Below, piece by piece: positions 7,034-34,117 of a DNA stretch of 64,000 nt. The notes below the pieces were generated by a model that was given only the letters and a program-made list of their open reading frames with translations, made no database searches and was not told where the DNA came from. Within the stretch, counting starts at the first letter, position 1. The number at the start of each line of letters is the position of its first letter. The DNA is taken from positions 1 through 64,000 of the forward strand of contig JBEPZV010000005.1 of the NCBI GenBank assembly GCA_041640655.1. Direction: 5' to 3'. Source of the stretch: a bacterium (GTDB taxonomy: Bacteria > Acidobacteriota > Blastocatellia > HR10). The translations under genes and the position numbers were made by a program.

Positions 7034-7498
7034 ATGCGCCATCGCGTGGATCATCGGAAGTTGAGACGGCCGACGGAGCATCGCCTGGCGATGCTGCGCA
7101 ATCTCTGCACATCGTTCATCATCGAGGAGCGGTTGGTGACGACGCTGGCCAAGGCGAAGGAGCTGCGCCGATTCGCGGAACGCGCCATCACATTGGCGCG
7201 GCGCAGTCTGCGGGCGGAGACGCCGGCGCAAGCGCTTCACTATCGCCGATTGGCCGCGCGGTATTTCATCGGGGGGCATGCGCAGGTCCGCTTTCGCGAG
7301 CACAAGAAGGAGCCGATTCGAACGATCGAACGCACGGCCGGTGTGAGGGCGCTCAAGAAGCTCTTCGATGAGATCGGTCCGCGGTACAGCGACCGACCGG
7401 GAGGGTATACGCGCATCCTGAAGCTCGGGATGCGGAAGGGGGATGGGGCGCAATTGGCCCTGATCGAGCTGGTCAAGGAGGAGAAGAAAGCCTCCTGA
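7034..7498 (+). CDS. rplQ: 50S ribosomal protein L17 with internal insertion
   Basis: MRHR, TTLAKAKELR, RPGGYTRILK, RKGDGA. Confidence 0.98.
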   Translation: MRHRVDHRKLRRPTEHRLAMLRNLCTSFIIEERLVTTLAKAKELRRFAERAITLARRSLRAETPAQALHYRRLAARYFIGGHAQVRFREHKKEPIRTIERTAGVRALKKLFDEIGPRYSDRPGGYTRILKLGMRKGDGAQLALIELVKEEKKAS

Positions 7499-7544
7499 GC
7501 GTGGGCCTCACGACCCTCGGACGCCGGGAACCGGAGGAGCGCTC

Positions 7545-8618
7545 ATGGATCTCCTCGCGCGGCAGGAGCGGGTGCGGCGCGCCCTCGCCGAGCGACAGCT
7601 TGAGGCGCTCCTGGTCACGCATGTGCCGAACGTTCGGTACCTCACGGGGTTCACCGGAAGCGCCGGCATCGCCCTGGTGACGCTGGAGGCGACCTATTTC
7701 ATCACGGACTCCCGATATACGCTCCAGGCTCAAAGTCAAGTCGCCGCTCGCCTCTTCCCCGCTGAGGATTCGCACGAGCGCGCGGTCGCTGACCTCATCC
7801 GAAGAGAGCGGCTTCGGAGGGTCGGACTGGAGGCCGAACGGTTGAGCGTCGCGCGATACGAGTTCCTGACCCGCGAGCTGGAGGGGAGCGTTCAGTGGGT
7901 GCCCACGCGCGGAATCGTCGAAGAATTGCGCATGGTGAAAGATGCCGAGGAGCAGCACGCCATTCGTCAGGCCGTCGAGTTGGCCGCTCGGGTCTTCTCC
8001 GAATGCCTCGCCGAAATTCGCCCGGGCGTGCGAGAGCGGGACGTCGCCGCCGAGTTGGAGTACCGGCTGCGGCGCGCCGGAGCTGAACGGCTCGCTTTCG
8101 AGACGATCGTGGCTTCGGGGGAGCGCGCGGCCTTGCCGCATGGTGTCGCTTCGGAGAAGCGGATCGGATATAATGAGTTCGTCGTGATTGACTTCGGGGT
8201 GGTCGTGGATGGATATTGCAGCGATATGACGCGCACGGTCTACGTGGGCATACCCGACGGGCGGGCGCGCGAGGTCTATCATACGGTCTTGGAGGCGCAG
8301 CTCCGGTGCGAGACGGAGATGCGCGCTGGCATGAGCGCGCGCGAGATTGACGCCCTGACGCGTGATCTCATCACGGCGCGCGGATATGGCGCGTTCTATG
8401 GGCATGCGACCGGTCATGGCATCGGCCTGGAGGTGCATGAGGCGCCGCGCCTCTCGCGGCAGAACGACGCGCCGGTACCCGCTGGCGCCGTCGTCACCGT
8501 CGAGCCCGGCATTTATCTCCCCGGATGGGGAGGCGTCCGAATCGAGGACGTGGTCATTGTCACCGAGCGCGGCAGTGAGGTTCTAACACCAACGCCGAAG
8601 GAGTTGCTCGTCATCTGA
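7545..8618 (+). CDS. Xaa-Pro peptidase (M24B)
   Basis: [43 protein letters not shown]. Confidence 0.95.
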
Positions 8619-8620
8619 CG

Positions 8621-9115
<495 letters not shown>

Positions 9116-27904: not shown

Positions 27905-29232
27905 CGTCGGTTCATCCTGGCGAGGAAGTCCCGTAAGACCTCGTGAAGCGTCGGCGAGCCGACTTCCTCCAGCTCGTAAGCGACGCGGCACGTCGGATGC
28001 CGCATCTGCAGGACGCGACGCAGATCCACAGGCGTGGCTACGAGCACGACGTCGCAGGGCACGCGATTGATCGTCTCTTCGAGTTCGCGCATCTGTTCGA
28101 GGCCGTAGCCCATTGCCGGCAGCAGCGGCCCGATGTGCGGATACTCGGCGAACGTCTCGCGGATGCTGCCGACCGCGTACGGGCGCGGATCCACCAGCTC
28201 GCGGGCGCCGAACTGTCGGGCGGCGAGCACGCCCGCTCCGTAACTCATCTCGCCGTGCGTCAGCGTCGGTCCATCCTCCACCACAAGCACGCGGCGATCG
28301 CGAATCGCCTCGGGCGCGTCCACGACGATTGTCAGGCCGGCCTCGATGACCATCGCCGTCGGGTTGAAAGCGCGAATATTTCGTCGAACGGTCTCCACAT
28401 CTTCCGGGCGCGCCGTGTTGACCTTGCTGATGATGAGGACATCGGCCCGCAGGAAATTCACTTCTCCGGGGAAGTACCCGCGCTCGTGTCCGGGCCGATG
28501 CGGATCCACGAGCACGATCTCCAGATCGGGCACGAAGAAGGGGAGATCGTTGTTCCCCCCGTCCCAGAGCAGGATGTCGGCCTCGGCCTCCGCCTGGCGC
28601 AGAATCCGCTCGTAATCCACGCCGGCGTAGACGATCACGCCGTTGCGCAGATGCGGTTCGTACTCCTCCATCTCCTCGATGGTGCACTTGTAGCGGCGCA
28701 GATCCTCGAGCGTCTCGAACCGTTGCACGACTTGCTGAGAGAGGTCGCCATAGGGCATGGGATGGCGCACGACGACGACGCGACAGCCCATCTCCCGAAG
28801 GAGCCGAGCGATCTTACGGCTCGCCGGACTCTTGCCGCAGCCCGTGCGCACGGCGCAGACGGAGATGACGGGCCGATCGGCGCGCAGCATCGTGGCGCGC
28901 GGCCCGAGCACGCGGAAGTCGGCGCCGTGCGCCAGCGCCCGCGCGGCCGCATGCATGACGTGCTCATGCGAGACATCGCTGTAGGAGAAGACGACCTGAT
29001 CAATCTCGTGCTCTTCGATCAACCGCTCCAAGTCCTCTTCCGGGTAGATGGGCAGCCCTTCGGGGTACAACTCGCCCGCCAGCTCGGGCGGATAGCGCCG
29101 CCCCTCGATGTTGGGGATCTGCGCCGCCGTGAAGGCGACGACCTCGTACTGCGGATCGTCGCGGAAGACGACATTGAAATTGTGAAAGTCTCGACCGGCT
29201 GCTCCCATGATGAGGATGCGCGTGCGCTTCAT
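27901..29232 (-). CDS. arcE: Arginine synthetase (ArcE)-like P-loop ligase (often annotated GTPase / cDPG synthetase-like)
   Basis: GAAGRDFHNFN, AVRTGCGKS, RHPMPYG, WDGGNND, EDGPTLTHG, LPAMGY; coupled to arcC and OTC. Confidence 0.8.
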   Translation of the reverse strand: MKRTRILIMGAAGRDFHNFNVVFRDDPQYEVVAFTAAQIPNIEGRRYPPELAGELYPEGLPIYPEEDLERLIEEHEIDQVVFSYSDVSHEHVMHAAARALAHGADFRVLGPRATMLRADRPVISVCAVRTGCGKSPASRKIARLLREMGCRVVVVRHPMPYGDLSQQVVQRFETLEDLRRYKCTIEEMEEYEPHLRNGVIVYAGVDYERILRQAEAEADILLWDGGNNDLPFFVPDLEIVLVDPHRPGHERGYFPGEVNFLRADVLIISKVNTARPEDVETVRRNIRAFNPTAMVIEAGLTIVVDAPEAIRDRRVLVVEDGPTLTHGEMSYGAGVLAARQFGARELVDPRPYAVGSIRETFAEYPHIGPLLPAMGYGLEQMRELEETINRVPCDVVLVATPVDLRRVLQMRHPTCRVAYELEEVGSPTLHEVLRDFLARMNRR

Positions 29233-29271
29233 AGGCCTCGTCTCCGTGTGCCGTGCTGTCGCCAGGATTCG

Positions 29272-30585
29272 TCAGATCACGCTCCCTTCAGGAACGACCG
29301 CATTCTTGGGGATGATCACGATGCCCTCGCGAATGTAGTAGTTTGGGCCATCGGCCTGCTGCGCCCCCGCTTCGTTCACAATGCGCGCGCGGGCGCCAAT
29401 GCGCACATTGCGATCCAGAATGGCGCGCCGAATGACGGCCCCTTCGCCGATGCCGATCTCCGGAAGGCCGCGCGCGCGATCCCGCTCCTGCTCCTCGGGC
29501 GAGGGGAAGAATTCCGCGCCGAACGCGATCACGCCGTCCACGTGAGCGCCGCGCTCCACCCGGCTGCGCAATCCGAGGATCGAGCGATGCACGCGCGCGC
29601 CCGTGAGCCGCGAGCCGTCGGCGATCAGGGAATCCACGATCTCGCTCTCCCGGAGTGTGGCCGGGGGGAGATAACGCGGTCGCGTATAGATCGGCGCATT
29701 CGGATCGTGCATGACAAGCGGTGGGTTCGGCGCGAGCATCCGCATGTGCGCTTCGTAATAGGCGCCGATCGTGCTCACATCATCCCAATACCCACGATGC
29801 CAATACGCATAGACGCGGAAGCGGGCGACGGCCAGCGGAAGCGCCTCCAAGCCGAAATCGAAGGGAGCGCTGGTCTGCTCCAACAGGGAGGCGAGCACGT
29901 CTCGCTTGAAGAGATAAACCCCTGTGGCGATCAGGAACATCTGCGGGTCATGCGCCAGGCGGCATTCGCGTAAGGTCTCCTGGCGCGGTTCCTCCTCGTA
30001 GCGGAGGACGCGCCAATCGGACAGACGGAGAGAATGCACGTCCGAGCCGGCGATCTTCACGACGCCTCGCGTGCGCGCCAACGCCTCATCCGCGAGGACG
30101 ACGACCAGCGTGAGATCGGCTTCCGCTTCCAAATGGAAGGCGACGAGCTCCTGGAGCGCGAGAGTGCTCACGTGATCACCGGGCAGAATCAGCACGTGGT
30201 GCGCGGGCCATGGCTCGAAGTGTCGCCAGGCGCGTCGGATCGCGTCCGTCGAACTGCGGTACCACTGGTGACTCTCCCAGGTCTGCTCGGCCGCGATGAT
30301 CTCGACGAATTCGGTGGATTCGGCGAACCGTCCCACCCGATACGTCTGCATCACGTGCCGATTGAGCGAGACCGAATTGAATTGCGTGAGCACGTAGATG
30401 CGGCGGAGCCCGGCATGCAGGCACCGGCTGAGGGCCAGATCAATGAGCCGATAGTGCCCCAGGAACGGCAGAGCCGCTTTGGCGCGCTCCGCGGTCAAGG
30501 GGAAGAGACGAGCACCCTGCCCGAGCCCTAACACGATCGTCAACACCTGCTGCCCGAAGGCGCGTGTGGTCGCCACCCCGTTCAT
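29272..30585 (-). CDS. Glucose-1-phosphate adenylyltransferase family protein, degenerate (GlgC/GlgD-like)
   Basis: RLFPLT.ERAK, YRLID, LTQFNSVSLNRH, C-terminal beta-helix; several conserved motifs altered. Confidence 0.85.
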   Translation of the reverse strand: MNGVATTRAFGQQVLTIVLGLGQGARLFPLTAERAKAALPFLGHYRLIDLALSRCLHAGLRRIYVLTQFNSVSLNRHVMQTYRVGRFAESTEFVEIIAAEQTWESHQWYRSSTDAIRRAWRHFEPWPAHHVLILPGDHVSTLALQELVAFHLEAEADLTLVVVLADEALARTRGVVKIAGSDVHSLRLSDWRVLRYEEEPRQETLRECRLAHDPQMFLIATGVYLFKRDVLASLLEQTSAPFDFGLEALPLAVARFRVYAYWHRGYWDDVSTIGAYYEAHMRMLAPNPPLVMHDPNAPIYTRPRYLPPATLRESEIVDSLIADGSRLTGARVHRSILGLRSRVERGAHVDGVIAFGAEFFPSPEEQERDRARGLPEIGIGEGAVIRRAILDRNVRIGARARIVNEAGAQQADGPNYYIREGIVIIPKNAVVPEGSVI

Positions 30586-30748
30586 GCCGCTCTCATTTTA
30601 GCCCATGAGCGCGCTCGGGCGCTACGACCCTTCCTCGATCTCCGGCGCATCGGGAATAAATCTCCCCCGTTGGTGTGTATTCTGATGTGGGAGCTTTCCG
30701 AAGAAGGTCCAGGCCGTGAGGAGGACAGACATCATGAACGGAGGAGAC

Positions 30749-31975
30749 ATGCGGCGTGCGAAGCTACTCGCCCTGGGCCTGATCATCGCGGGCTTCGGCC
30801 TGGGGCTCGGTGGGGCGAGGGCCACGTCCCCCGTCCCGCAGAAGTTTCAGATTCGCATCCCCTTGGGGATCCCGGCCGACCTCTGGGAGATGATGATCCC
30901 GGCGGATAATCCGATGACCGAGGCCAAGGTGGCCCTCGGTCGCGATCTCTATTTCGAGAAGCGGCTCTCGGTGGACAACACCGTCAGTTGCGCGACCTGT
31001 CACGATCCGCGGTTCGCGTTCACCGACGGCAAGCCGGTCTCCGAAGGGGTGGGCGGGAAAAAAGGCGCGCGCAACGCGCCGACGGTCTTGAACGCCATGT
31101 TCAATGAGGAGCAGTTCTGGGATGGGCGGGTGAAGACCCTCGAGGAGCAGGTCCTGCAACCGCTCATCAATCCCGTCGAGATGGCCATGCCCTCGCATGA
31201 GGCGGTCGTCGCCAAGGTGCGGGGGATTCCCGAATACGCGCAGCGCTTCCGGGAGGTCTTCGGCGGTCCCAATCCCGTGACCATCGAGAACATCGCGAAG
31301 GCGATCGCGGCCTTCGAGCGCACGCTCCTTTCGGGAGATTCACCCTTTGACCGCTTCATGGCGGGTGATCCCAAGGCGATCAGCGAGGCGGCCAAACGCG
31401 GATGGGAACTCTTCAAAGGGAAAGCCCGCTGCATCACCTGCCATGAGTTCAACCCTTCCTCGCCCTTCTTCACCGACTTCAAGTACCACAACATCGGCAT
31501 CGGCATGAAGGCCACGCGGAATTTCGAAGCGCTCGCGCGGCAGATTCAACAGATGGCGCAGGAGAATCGGCTGACGAAGGAGGCCTTAGATCGGCTCGCC
31601 CTCACCGAGGGCTTCTCCGAATTGGGCCGATTTCTCGTGACGCGTCAGCCCAAGGACGTGGGCGCGTTCAAGACCTCGCCGTTGCGCGACATCGAGCTGA
31701 CGGCTCCTTACATGCACGATGGGAGTCTGAAGACGCTCCGCGAGGTGATTGATTTCTACGACAAAGGGGGTGAGCCCAATCCGAATCTCGATGGCGGGAT
31801 TGTGAAGCTCAATCTCACCGAGCAGGAGAAGGCGGATTTGGAGGAATTCCTGAAGAGTTTGACCAGTGATTGGGTGCGGCGGGTCGCTCGCGGAGAGATC
31901 AAGCTGGCCGCCGAGCCCACTTCCGGGAATCCGACGCCGACGGTGGCGCGCGGTTCTCGGTCTTGGAGGAGGTGA
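30749..31975 (+). CDS. Diheme cytochrome c peroxidase/MauG-family protein
   Basis: Signal peptide; CATCH and CITCH; RNAPT, QFWDGR, FKT.PLR, TAPYMHDG. Confidence 0.93.
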   Translation: MRRAKLLALGLIIAGFGLGLGGARATSPVPQKFQIRIPLGIPADLWEMMIPADNPMTEAKVALGRDLYFEKRLSVDNTVSCATCHDPRFAFTDGKPVSEGVGGKKGARNAPTVLNAMFNEEQFWDGRVKTLEEQVLQPLINPVEMAMPSHEAVVAKVRGIPEYAQRFREVFGGPNPVTIENIAKAIAAFERTLLSGDSPFDRFMAGDPKAISEAAKRGWELFKGKARCITCHEFNPSSPFFTDFKYHNIGIGMKATRNFEALARQIQQMAQENRLTKEALDRLALTEGFSELGRFLVTRQPKDVGAFKTSPLRDIELTAPYMHDGSLKTLREVIDFYDKGGEPNPNLDGGIVKLNLTEQEKADLEEFLKSLTSDWVRRVARGEIKLAAEPTSGNPTPTVARGSRSWRR

Positions 31976-31980
31976 TCGTT

Positions 31981-33105
31981 ATGTGGCCCTTGAAATGGAA
32001 GAAGCGAGAACAGGAATATCGTCAGCAGCGCGAGGAGTTCTTCGAGGCCGTGAAGCGACTCAACCGCCGAGAGTTCATGAAGATCGCCGGTCTGTCGGCG
32101 GCGGTCTTCACGGCGAAGCAGGTCGTTCCCCCCCATTCGTTCCAAGTCGTGGACGTCGTGCGGGCCGATCCGCAGGAGAAGCCGCTCTTCCGCTTCGCCT
32201 ACATCTCCGACACGCATCTCTATGAGCGGGAGTTGAACGAGCGCTTCGTCAACGCGGCGCTTCGGGCCGTGCGCGACGTCAATGCGCTGGATCCGCCTCC
32301 TGATTTCGTCCTCTTCGGAGGGGATCTGGCGCAGCTCGGACAACCGAAGGAGTTGGAGTTGGGGAAGCAAATCCTGAGCGAGCTGAAGGTGCCCGTGAAG
32401 ATGATGGTCGGCGAGCATGATTGGTTCCTCGATATGGGCGAGAAGTGGCGTGAGCTGTTCGGGCCCGAGAATTACTCGTTCGACCACAAGGGGGTGCACT
32501 TCATCGTCCTGATGAGCGTGAACGAGAAGGACTTCTGGACCGAGCGGAAGATGACGCCGATGGAGCGCATGCTCACGGTCGCGCAGCTCGACAATCCCAT
32601 CCAGAGTCGGTTCGAGGTGGGCGAAGAAGGGCGCGAGTGGCTGCGGCGCGATCTGGCGCGGGTCTCCAAGGACACGCCCATCATCATCTTCTCCCACTCG
32701 CCGCTCTACAAGTACTATCGCCCGTGGAACTTCTGGACCGAGGACGCCGAGGCGATTCACGAGATGCTCTTCCCCTTCAAGTCGGTGACGGTCATTCACG
32801 GCCACACGCATCAGCTGCTGACTCATCGGATTCAGAACATTCACTTCCACGGGATGCTCTCGACGGCGTGGCCGTGGCCTTACGCTCCGGAGGGCTTGCC
32901 CAAGTTGACCGTGCCCATGGAGCGGCCCGATCCCTTCGATGAGGCCGATGGGACGGGGTGGGGCACGGTGGACGTGCATCGTGATGGCTATGTGGACAAG
33001 CACTACAACCTCTGGAGCCGAAATCCGATCACGGTCGCCAAGGCATATCTGGAATCGTGGGGCAAGGAGGCCGTCCCTCCGATTCCCGAATTTCCACCGT
33101 ATTAG
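31981..33105 (+). CDS. Calcineurin-like metallophosphoesterase with Tat-type signal
   Basis: NRREFMK; DTH, GGDL, GEHD, SHSP, HGHTH. Confidence 0.9.
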   Translation: MWPLKWKKREQEYRQQREEFFEAVKRLNRREFMKIAGLSAAVFTAKQVVPPHSFQVVDVVRADPQEKPLFRFAYISDTHLYERELNERFVNAALRAVRDVNALDPPPDFVLFGGDLAQLGQPKELELGKQILSELKVPVKMMVGEHDWFLDMGEKWRELFGPENYSFDHKGVHFIVLMSVNEKDFWTERKMTPMERMLTVAQLDNPIQSRFEVGEEGREWLRRDLARVSKDTPIIIFSHSPLYKYYRPWNFWTEDAEAIHEMLFPFKSVTVIHGHTHQLLTHRIQNIHFHGMLSTAWPWPYAPEGLPKLTVPMERPDPFDEADGTGWGTVDVHRDGYVDKHYNLWSRNPITVAKAYLESWGKEAVPPIPEFPPY

Positions 33106-33118
33106 ATGGGAGGAGGCG

Positions 33119-33724
33119 ATGAGGACAGCGAAATGGTTTCTCCTGGTCGCGGGGATTCTGGGGATCGCGCTTGTCGCGACATCGTGGGATCGGTCGGCCG
33201 CCGGCGCGCAGGAGTCGAAGCCATCCGGCGGCTCCGATCGCCTCGTCGTGCAGCTCTGTGATGGCGAGACGAAATTGGAGATCGCCGATGCGCGCGCGGG
33301 CGAGGTCCTGCCGCCCGAGAAAGCGCGCGAAGTGGCGCGCCGCATGATGGCCGCCTACGCCGAACAGCAGGCCAAGCAAGTCTCCAAATGGACGGCGCGC
33401 GATCGCTTGACGTGGGAGCGCGAGCAGAAGCGCGTGATCGAGGAGGGGTACAAGCTCTTCCATGATTGGAAGGCGCTGGGGGGCACCATCGGCATCTCCT
33501 GCGATATGTGCCATCCAGATGCGGCGGCGACGCATCCGGAGACCTATCCGAAGTTCCAGACCCAGCTCAAGCGCGTGGCCACCTTGCGCGACATGATCAA
33601 CTGGTGCATCGAGAATCCCATGAAGGGGAAGCCCCTGCCGCCGGACGATCCGCGCATGATCGCGCTCGAAGCCTATATCACGAGCACGCGCAAGGGCGTG
33701 CCACTCGAGCCTGGGAAACATTGA
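33119..33724 (+). CDS. Exported monoheme cytochrome c, TsdA/SoxA-like domain
   Basis: Signal peptide; CDMCH; YPKF...LRDMINWCIENPMKG...MIALEAY. Confidence 0.85.
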   Translation: MRTAKWFLLVAGILGIALVATSWDRSAAGAQESKPSGGSDRLVVQLCDGETKLEIADARAGEVLPPEKAREVARRMMAAYAEQQAKQVSKWTARDRLTWEREQKRVIEEGYKLFHDWKALGGTIGISCDMCHPDAAATHPETYPKFQTQLKRVATLRDMINWCIENPMKGKPLPPDDPRMIALEAYITSTRKGVPLEPGKH

Positions 33725-33729
33725 CGCTC

Positions 33730-33764
33730 GAAGGGCTCGGCGCGCGCTCGCGCCGGGGCCCTTT
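33730..33764. terminator. GC-rich hairpin between convergent genes
   Basis: gaagggctcggcgcg-cgct-cgcgccggggcccttt. Confidence 0.55.
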
Positions 33765-33833
33765 CAGGCGTGTGAGCGGAATAGGGACCCGACGGGGCGC
33801 GCGCGGCCTCTGGGCTATTTGTCGGGCGGAATC

Positions 33834-33854: not shown

Positions 33855-34085
33855 TCACACCCCTCAGGTCCCTCCGAAGCCGATGGTCACCCGCTCGCCT
33901 TCCACGATCACGGGCACGCTGCGCTTGCCCCCCGAATAGTGGAGCATGCGTTGGAAGGCCGACTCGTCCTTCTGCACGTTGAAGTAGTGGACGTCGTATC
34001 CGCGTTGGCCGTAGTCCTCACGGGCGGCCGTCGTATACGGTCAGGTGTCTTTGCCGAAGATGAGCACGATCTTCTTCTGCTCCAT
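33855..34085 (-). CDS. UXX-star family glutaredoxin-like selenoprotein with two Sec (U15, U74); absent from ORF track
   Basis: MEQKKIVLIFGKDT-U-PYTTAAREDYGQRGYDVHYFNVQKDESAFQRMLHYSGGKRSVPVIVEGERVTIGFGGT-U-GV*; GGAGGTGAGGAG SD; glutaredoxin VP motif continues across the UGA. Confidence 0.9.
34007..34029 (-). promoter_or_regulatory. SECIS-like hairpin for U15
   Basis: ggccg-cccgtgaggacta-cggcc starting 11 nt after UGA 34043-34041. Confidence 0.55.
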
Positions 34086-34117
34086 CACTCCTCACCTCCG
34101 CTTCCCAGGCATCTGGC

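Follow-up and report, generated by a model that had tools for sequence, protein, structure and literature searches.

Our results indicate that three adjacent genes in a 64,000-nucleotide stretch of DNA from a bacterium of the class Blastocatellia (Acidobacteriota; assembly GCA_041640655.1, contig JBEPZV010000005.1, positions 1 to 64,000, hereafter the window) belong together as a conserved triad of exported proteins. In a fixed order, they encode a dihaem enzyme of the MauG/MbnH type (gene A), a dimetal protein with the metallophosphoesterase fold (gene B) and a monohaem cytochrome with the SoxA/TsdA fold (gene C). We propose, tentatively and at slightly less than an even chance, that the triad is a stress-induced periplasmic redox module, in which B serves as the dimetal catalytic subunit, connected to the haems of A and C, and H2O2 acting at A is the probable oxidant. 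The proposal is based on the fixed synteny, on natural gene fusions, on the altered metal site of B, on the electron carriers and the regulator family that accompany relatives of B, and on the MauG-type nature of A.

In such a module, a dedicated extracytoplasmic function (ECF) sigma factor would switch the triad on, and its cognate anti-sigma factor has a c-type haem motif on the periplasmic side. B would work as the catalytic dimetal subunit and as a redox centre, not a hydrolase, and would exchange electrons with both haems of A and with the Cys-ligated haem of C. The five-coordinate haem of A would most likely bind H2O2, so that the module as a whole would be a 'substrate:H2O2 oxidoreductase', used under peroxide, redox or metal stress. 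Judging by how the site in B is shaped, the candidate substrate would be a small oxyanion or a metal ion.

Conservation and organisation of the triad

To judge by sequence comparison, the triad is conserved far above chance. A relative of B was found at E <= 0.001 in 21 of the 41 genomes of the class, and a close one in 18. Among 20 distinct loci from these class relatives, 17 keep A-B-C in the same order and on the same strand; one of the other three is cut by a contig end, one is a second copy of B standing alone and one has B and C. A scan with B of contigs that represent each species by one genome yielded at least 580 relatives, and the best 80 loci were analysed. The three genes stand in order in 72 of them, seven are cut by a contig end, and a single locus (L032) has no A despite 6 kb of upstream sequence. 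The carriers belong to at least six phyla and include Acidobacteriota, Myxococcota (Corallococcus, Myxococcus, Cystobacter, Archangium and Hyalangium among them), Binatia, Kryptonia, Methylocella/Methylocystis, Thermodesulfobacteriota and others, with B more than 60% identical across phyla. Altogether, B has 4918 relatives at E <= 1e-10. A preliminary description of the locus had postulated a dedicated periplasmic system, and the conservation of the triad in both sets of loci upholds a module of this kind. Absence of the triad from other genomes, which that description named as a ground for refutation, is clearly contradicted by these loci.

A metagenome scan seeded with a fused A-B form added 80 more loci, with C downstream in 73 and fewer than 300 nt remaining in the other seven. 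Two natural A-B fusions (P0276, 744 aa, and P0277, 745 aa) join CCP_MauG and Metallophos domains in one chain and, at the sequence level, are evidence that A and B are directly coupled. The twin-arginine motif has decayed in the linker of both, pointing to export of the dimetal domain through the Sec pathway in this lineage. A further candidate fusion, P0278, was rejected as a garbled frameshift product.

In the window, the three genes lie on the forward strand, with gaps of only 5 nt between A and B and 13 nt between B and C, and each start codon is preceded by a ribosome site of the GGAGG type. Pfam places A in CCP_MauG (1.6e-61), B in Metallophos (5.5e-17) and C in SoxA-TsdA_cyt-c (PF21342, 1.9e-14). 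The hydrophobic N-termini of A and C are export signals. The open reading frames, these N-termini and the twin-arginine motif of B bear out the tightly packed, co-oriented and exported genes that had been described at the outset, and Pfam, alignments and folds agree with the families then assigned to them (MauG-type, Tat metallophosphoesterase and SoxA/TsdA-like).

The dimetal protein B and its relatives

Gene B (31981-33105, forward strand) encodes a protein of 374 aa with the metallophosphoesterase fold. It scores 63.3 bits against PF00149 (gathering cut-off 21.5), and its AlphaFold2 model, with a mean predicted local distance difference test (pLDDT) score of 86.9, is nearest to GpdQ (Foldseek E 3.8e-15) and Rv0805, followed by purple acid phosphatases. 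The metal-ligand positions D77, H79, D115, E145, H239, H275 and H277 are conserved. Canonical metallophosphoesterases have GNH(D/E) as motif III, where the Asn is a metal ligand and the His is catalytic. In B, this motif reads G144-E145-H146-D147, with Glu145 conserved at 90% or more; the alignment places GNHD of GpdQ opposite GEHD of B. The His next to the Glu is changed to Gln, Gly, Thr or Ala in distant relatives. With Glu145 in place of Asn, and with the adjacent catalytic His lost in those relatives, B is by its motifs no ordinary phosphatase. Neither does it show the GDxxY motif of purple acid phosphatases, whose Tyr is an Fe(III) ligand: the corresponding residues are G114-D115-L-A-Q118, with Q118 invariant and the Tyr absent. 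The SoxB model gave no match to B in NCBIfam at E <= 0.1, and a search of the ESM Atlas led from B to 'metallophosphoesterase' clusters only and from the sensor domain of the anti-sigma factor to unnamed clusters.

Export of B through the twin-arginine translocation (Tat) pathway is predicted from the motif N-R29-R30-E-F32-M-K, which is followed by the hydrophobic segment IAGLSAAVFTA; R29 and R30 are invariant in 40 relatives of B, and F32 is invariant or nearly so. A long, conserved helical N-region with an invariant R17 (window 31981-32070) precedes this motif, which is unusual for a Tat signal. It is similar to the chaperone-binding signal peptides found in Tat substrates that contain cofactors; there is no chaperone gene in the operon. 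At the other end, B has a Trp-rich C-terminal extension, and many of its Trp and Tyr residues are invariant.

Distant relatives of B, of about 300 aa and with a Tat signal, share about 39% identity with its N-terminal half. They constitute a sister clade of Tat-exported, phosphoesterase-fold proteins in Acidobacteriota (loci L111-L113 and L116-L138). Searched with the relative from L111, 301 Acidobacteriota genomes gave matches at E <= 1e-20 in 23 cases, three of them through core B itself. An electron-carrier gene adjoins the distant relative in 14 of the 23 loci examined, L120 being left out. The carrier is a cupredoxin at six loci (L111, L113, L123, L127, L132 and L138), a class I cytochrome c at three (L111, L112 and L122), a dihaem protein with the Pfam domains Haem_bd and Cytochrom_C at L125, L126 and L133, a dihaem protein recognised by two CxxCH motifs only at L131 and L134, and a Rieske protein at L116. 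At the other nine loci the carrier was not identified or the flanks were unscanned. Within these 23 loci, most with flanks of 1.5 kb, no A-type gene or other enzyme was found in the operons of the relatives, which retain the metal ligands, Glu included. Since relatives of B without A keep the metal site and adjoin electron carriers, a redox enzyme fits better than a protein that A would have to mature, an alternative considered below.

Many of these operons also have a divergent ECF sigma and anti-sigma pair homologous to that of the triad; one such anti-sigma factor is a full-length homologue of the triad type from which the CxxCH tail is absent. At L132, an ArsR-family gene follows the pair of B relative and cupredoxin. 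The curA copper cluster of Myxococcus holds cupredoxin_1 and PF13442 proteins and no relative of B (PMC3707914); by analogy, it suggests at best that carriers of this kind form part of metal-stress modules.

Regulation, stress context and flanking genes

When the flanks of the 80 genome loci were clustered, only two further recurrent genes emerged, an ECF sigma gene with Sigma70_r2 and r4 domains, adjoining the triad in 21 of the 80 loci, and a zf-HC2 anti-sigma gene, adjoining it in 20, whose product has one membrane span. All 20 of these triad-linked anti-sigma factors, from several phyla, carry a CxxCH motif in the periplasmic C-terminus. The sequence around it, SCxxCHPxA, resembles the haem site of C (ISCDMCHPDA). 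In the window's own genome (G000), the pair is unlinked to the triad and lies outside the window, at locus L108 on contig G000:C65, where 7476-8114 encode the sigma factor and 8111-8947 the zf-HC2 anti-sigma factor P0275; the periplasmic C-terminus of the latter contains C-M-V-C-H. Anti-sigma factors of the P0275 type may be haem-based periplasmic sensors. In the literature searched, mostly outside subscription journals and exclusive of supplements, no description of a CxxCH-bearing anti-sigma factor was found. This regulatory layer, which the preliminary description did not contain, came to light in the flanks of the 80 loci and on G000:C65.

An ECF-type promoter-like motif, GGAATAAA-N15-TGT, is located at 30653..30678 on the forward strand, 71 nt upstream of the start codon (ATG) of gene A. 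The 3.13 Mb genome has just two copies of it, one preceding gene A and the other the sigma gene (G000:C65:7372-7397), and the reversed pattern used as a control has no site. The pattern was derived from its own two sites, and hence was checked in further genomes: four others of the genus, G001, G003, G004 and G006, have it before both gene A and the sigma gene, and G007 before A. Additional sites number one each in G001 and G003 and none in G004 and G006. The sequence GGAATAA(A) is also found upstream of A in other Acidobacteriota, in Kryptonia and in some Myxococcota. The shared promoter motif predicts that the sigma gene and the triad form an ECF regulon. One genome that lacks the core triad encodes a homologue of the haem-type anti-sigma factor, with 56% identity, beside a 403-aa protein with two CxxCH motifs (L111:11700-12911; G033:C15:201634-202284), which gives a weak match to DHOR (dihaem oxidoreductase). 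This family of regulators may control other dihaem enzymes too.

Where no ECF pair adjoins the triad, 84 open reading frames on the same strand in the neighbourhood were scanned with Pfam, and most had no match. Among those that did, the gene immediately upstream of A encodes a Fur-family regulator in L044, L076 and L086; the one from L044, the only one scanned against NCBIfam, scored best with PerR models, below the cut-off. Ferritin/Dps-like genes are found in L088, L090 and L092. In L086, C is followed by a KatG-type peroxidase, and L096 and L058 have a DUF892 protein and a LysR regulator, respectively. In L040 and L052 (Vitiosangium and Archangium), a hemocyanin/tyrosinase copper-domain protein of about 740 aa is encoded directly upstream of A on the same strand.

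As regards expression, one metatranscriptomic run contains 52% of the words sampled from the region. RNA-library contigs cover parts of A, B and C and bridge both the A/B (31306-32205) and the B/C (33024-33614) junctions. The X1 RNA-library contigs leave glgC (29200-30606) and parts of B uncovered, although contigs of this kind cannot show absence, starts or levels.

The genes on either side are unrelated housekeeping genes, glgC being divergent on the upstream side and a gene for a small selenoprotein, together with carB, convergent on the downstream side; the triad is for this reason taken as a discrete unit. A G+C-rich inverted repeat follows the stop codon of gene C (about 33724-33771, forward strand) and is a weak terminator candidate. 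The hairpin that was said to close the unit is present as a repeat, with a folding energy of -33.4 kcal/mol. A role as an intrinsic terminator is not supported, since it has no U tract, is not listed by a terminator scan, and 27 of 200 shuffled sequences fold equally well (z -1.24). Convergent to C, a small glutaredoxin-like open reading frame (33864-34088, reverse strand) shows a TGA codon in frame at the position of the active site (..GKDT-U-PYT..). With selenocysteine read as Cys, it matches the NCBIfam 'UXX-star selenoprotein family 1' at 114.6 bits, against a cut-off of 72. It is likely, on the basis of this match, a selenoprotein gene missed by lists of open reading frames made with genetic code table 11.

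The haem proteins and the competing explanations

Several points weigh against a redox module. Co-encoding with electron carriers is no proof that B is redox active, given that SoxB is a hydrolase encoded among cytochromes. The fusion of A to B is rare: only two fused proteins were found and none of 70 metagenome loci with both parts has them fused, so that fusion as a general rule was rejected. The stress context is seen at a minority of the loci, with scores for PerR and Dps that fall short of the curated cut-offs. The RNA-library contigs may hold DNA and do not prove a single transcript. The anti-sigma factor is present in 15 of the 18 genomes with core B and absent in three, and a homologue occurs in 8 of the 23 genomes without core B, for which reason strict co-occurrence was rejected. 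Finally, a His/Cys-ligated haem is expected to have a low potential (PMC6879331), and by analogy that of C would be expected to be awkward for a simple electron shuttle.

The redox module can be stated in a wider form, which we regard as somewhat unlikely. The Tat-exported GE(H)D branch of the metallophosphoesterase fold would then be a new class of periplasmic dimetal oxidoreductases. In the triad, it would be driven by a MauG-type partner in a high-valent state generated by H2O2 and would oxidise a small oxyanion or metal ion (e.g. phosphite, arsenite, sulfite, Fe(II) or Mn(II)) able to occupy a phosphate-type site, the operon being under a new type of anti-sigma factor that would sense the periplasm through a covalent haem. 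A hydrolase scaffold would thus have been recruited for redox chemistry, as in the flavodiiron proteins.

The part of the H2O2-consuming partner is suggested for A by its haem sites. Gene A (30749-31975, forward strand) encodes a Sec-exported protein of 408 aa with the haem motifs CATCH and CITCH, in which neither C81-x-x-C84-H85 nor C228-x-x-C231-H232 varies among 29 sequences. In ungapped alignment, Tyr337 falls opposite MauG index 294 and opposite the Met of the P. pantotrophus peroxidase (2c1u); a Tyr at this position is kept in 76 of 77 orthologues and is invariant in the 29-sequence alignment. It is predicted to be the sixth ligand of the six-coordinate haem. The distal His of the bacterial cytochrome c peroxidase (bCCP; IGHGW loop, 1nml) is replaced by Val. 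With these two changes, Met to Tyr337 and distal His to Val, A departs from the canonical dihaem cytochrome c peroxidases, whose electron-transfer haem is His/Met-ligated and whose peroxidatic haem loop carries a distal His. Its best-scoring NCBIfam models are those of MbnH (TIGR04039, 261.7 bits, cut-off 362.85) and MauG (TIGR03791, 245 bits, cut-off 443.85), both below the cut-off. The neighbours of A are B and C, with no MbnP and, within the window, no methylamine dehydrogenase gene. Its nearest structures are a bCCP (E 6e-55) and 6e1c, a 'di-heme enzyme' (3e-54), with BthA (6nx0) at only 6e-13. Because of Tyr337, the absence of the distal His, and MbnH and MauG models that score best yet below their cut-offs, A is, as far as sequence and model scores indicate, a MauG-type enzyme that forms its own subfamily. 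According to the accessible portions of two reports, the oxidant of MauG-type enzymes is H2O2 (PMC11892367; PMC6405878), and mutation of Tyr294 in MauG or Tyr463 in BthA abolishes the bis-Fe(IV) signature (PMC6405878).

These features also suit a maturase, an explanation raised in the preliminary description and one that we consider improbable. By way of H2O2 and a bis-Fe(IV) state, A would oxidise residues of B (or C) once after export, leaving a protein-derived cofactor or an oxidised metal site, and B would then act independently. Such a role would parallel those of MauG towards pre-methylamine dehydrogenase and of MbnH towards MbnP. It accords with the MauG-type Tyr of A, the missing distal His and the best scores with MbnH and MauG, with the many invariant Trp and Tyr residues of B, and with the existence of A-B fusions. 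The accessible part of the BthA report further states that BthA always adjoins a partner gene, as the preliminary description had correctly stated, which encodes a putative purple acid phosphatase, PhosA, and its authors suggest oxidation of the partner (PMC6405878). However, the same ligands, Glu among them, are found in relatives of B that lie beside carriers in loci without an A-type gene, which indicates that the fold needs no such maturation, and the conserved aromatic residues of B are mostly common to those A-less relatives. A maturase also leaves no role for C, although C is as conserved as A, and it would be unusual for a single-turnover maturase to be permanently fused to its substrate. 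Of the earlier suggestion, the MauG-type nature of A and its coupling to B stand, whereas the need of B for maturation is made less likely by the A-less relatives.

The preliminary description had also considered a Sox-independent module for sulfur oxyanions, which has become highly improbable. Here, C would conjugate thiosulfate to a cysteine (cf. SoxAX and TsdA), B would hydrolyse the sulfonate (cf. SoxB) and A would take the electrons. SoxB is likewise a Tat-exported dimetal enzyme of the same superfamily, and C has the SoxA/TsdA fold and a Cys ligand. Gene C (33119-33724, forward strand) encodes an exported monohaem c-type cytochrome of 201 aa, which scores 53.9 bits against PF21342 (cut-off 27) and has TsdA and SoxA as its best Foldseek matches. 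The haem motif is C128-D-M-C131-H132, and the haem-domain motif is kept in 72 of 75 orthologues. Cys163, the predicted ligand, aligns to Cys96, the haem 1 ligand of A. vinosum TsdA. A beta-hairpin-plus-helix domain at the N-terminus (residues ~38-86, window 33230-33380) contains Cys47-Asp48 (LCDG), invariant in 29 genome sequences, and Cys47 could be the carrier cysteine. In a metagenomic clade, however, C has only ~135-142 aa and the N-domain is absent throughout, so that Cys47 was rejected as a universal carrier. The thiosulfate-binding residues of TsdA are Arg109, Arg119 and Ser127 in the precursor numbering, where the ligand is Cys123, and Arg119 does not vary in TsdA and SoxA (PMC4423706). 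In C, these positions map, in one pairwise alignment, to Q149, M159 and P167, all invariant. The alignment of C with the non-catalytic N-terminal haem domain of SoxA is better than that with the catalytic domain (21.1 vs 14.6 bits), its score against the SoxA model TIGR04484 is 47.7 against a cut-off of 110, and it has a single CxxCH and no SoxX nearby. A sulfur-oxyanion function is therefore weakened, because C is without the thiosulfate-binding residues, matches a non-catalytic SoxA domain and can dispense with the Cys47 domain. B, for its part, has no SoxB match, and the flanks of the 80 genome loci hold no conserved SoxX, SoxYZ or rhodanese gene.

It is just as doubtful that the association is a loose one, in which A and C would be an ordinary periplasmic H2O2 peroxidase with its donor cytochrome and B an independent exported phosphodiesterase sharing the operon. 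The nearest folds of B, GpdQ and Rv0805, are real phosphodiesterases, peroxide-stress genes adjoin some loci, and BthA is a good peroxidase despite its Tyr ligand, as stated in the accessible part of its report (PMC6405878). All this is hard to square with a gene order fixed over at least six phyla, the high identity of B, the A-B fusions, the change of Asn to Glu in B and the loss of the catalytic His in relatives, and the pairing of those relatives with cupredoxins, cytochromes or a Rieske protein; a low-potential His/Cys haem would also be an unusual donor to a peroxidase. The residual probability lies with functions beyond the redox module, the maturase, the Sox-like pathway and the loose association.

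The published system closest to the triad is BthA/PhosA of Burkholderia, a MauG-type His/Tyr dihaem enzyme always beside an exported protein of the metallophosphoesterase superfamily, for which oxidation of the partner has been proposed; the accessible part of the report mentions no third cytochrome and no ECF control (PMC6405878). A is only distantly similar to BthA (6nx0, E 6e-13), and B has GDLAQ, not GDxxY, and is nearest to GpdQ/Rv0805, the sequence of PhosA itself being outside the comparison. By the tests run, A and B do not appear to be orthologues of BthA and PhosA, the latter judged without its sequence. A shares with MauG and MbnH the two c-type haems, the Tyr position, the lack of a distal His and an adjacent partner gene, and those two enzymes use H2O2 as the oxidant; the partner in the triad is a dimetal protein plus a cytochrome, not methylamine dehydrogenase or MbnP, and A is under the equivalog cut-offs. 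The fold and Cys ligand of C and the Tat export of a dimetal enzyme of the same superfamily recall SoxAX/SoxB and TsdA, from which the triad differs in that C has one haem and no substrate-binding arginines, B is not SoxB, and SoxX and SoxYZ are missing. The class III phosphodiesterases GpdQ, Rv0805 and CpdA are the best matches of B in fold and sequence, with D-x-H, GD, H and GHxH in common. B differs from them in the Glu for Asn, in Tat export with a long N-region, in the Trp-rich C-terminal extension and in its obligatory haem-protein neighbours. The regulators resemble known systems of ECF sigma and zinc-binding anti-sigma factors (ZAS, zf-HC2) in the Sigma70_r2/r4 domains, the one-span zf-HC2 protein and a putatively autoregulated promoter with a GGAA-type -35 element, and differ in the conserved periplasmic CxxCH at the end of the anti-sigma factor (20/20). 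GSU1538, a Co(II)-induced MauG-like peroxidase of Geobacter, was dropped as a lead, no phosphoesterase neighbour being mentioned in the accessible part of the report (PMC7726332).

The same literature yielded no paper on the triad or on a redox-active metallophosphoesterase. The triad is thus apparently uncharacterised in print, as had been supposed at the outset, and the ECF sigma factor with its haem-motif anti-sigma factor is a new finding of this work. Few partners of MauG-type dihaem enzymes are known, and among these BthA-PhosA, whose function is not known, is the one published case with a phosphatase fold. The triad is a far more widespread version of this pairing, found in lineages of soil, hot springs and sediments, in methanotrophs and in culturable myxobacteria. 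It also offers a regulatory handle, with one sigma factor and one apparent target operon in the window's genome. If B is indeed a redox enzyme, the triad would widen the range of reactions of one of the best-studied hydrolase folds and would represent a new form of stress defence in the periplasm. An anti-sigma factor that bears haem, if confirmed, would be a new type of sensor.

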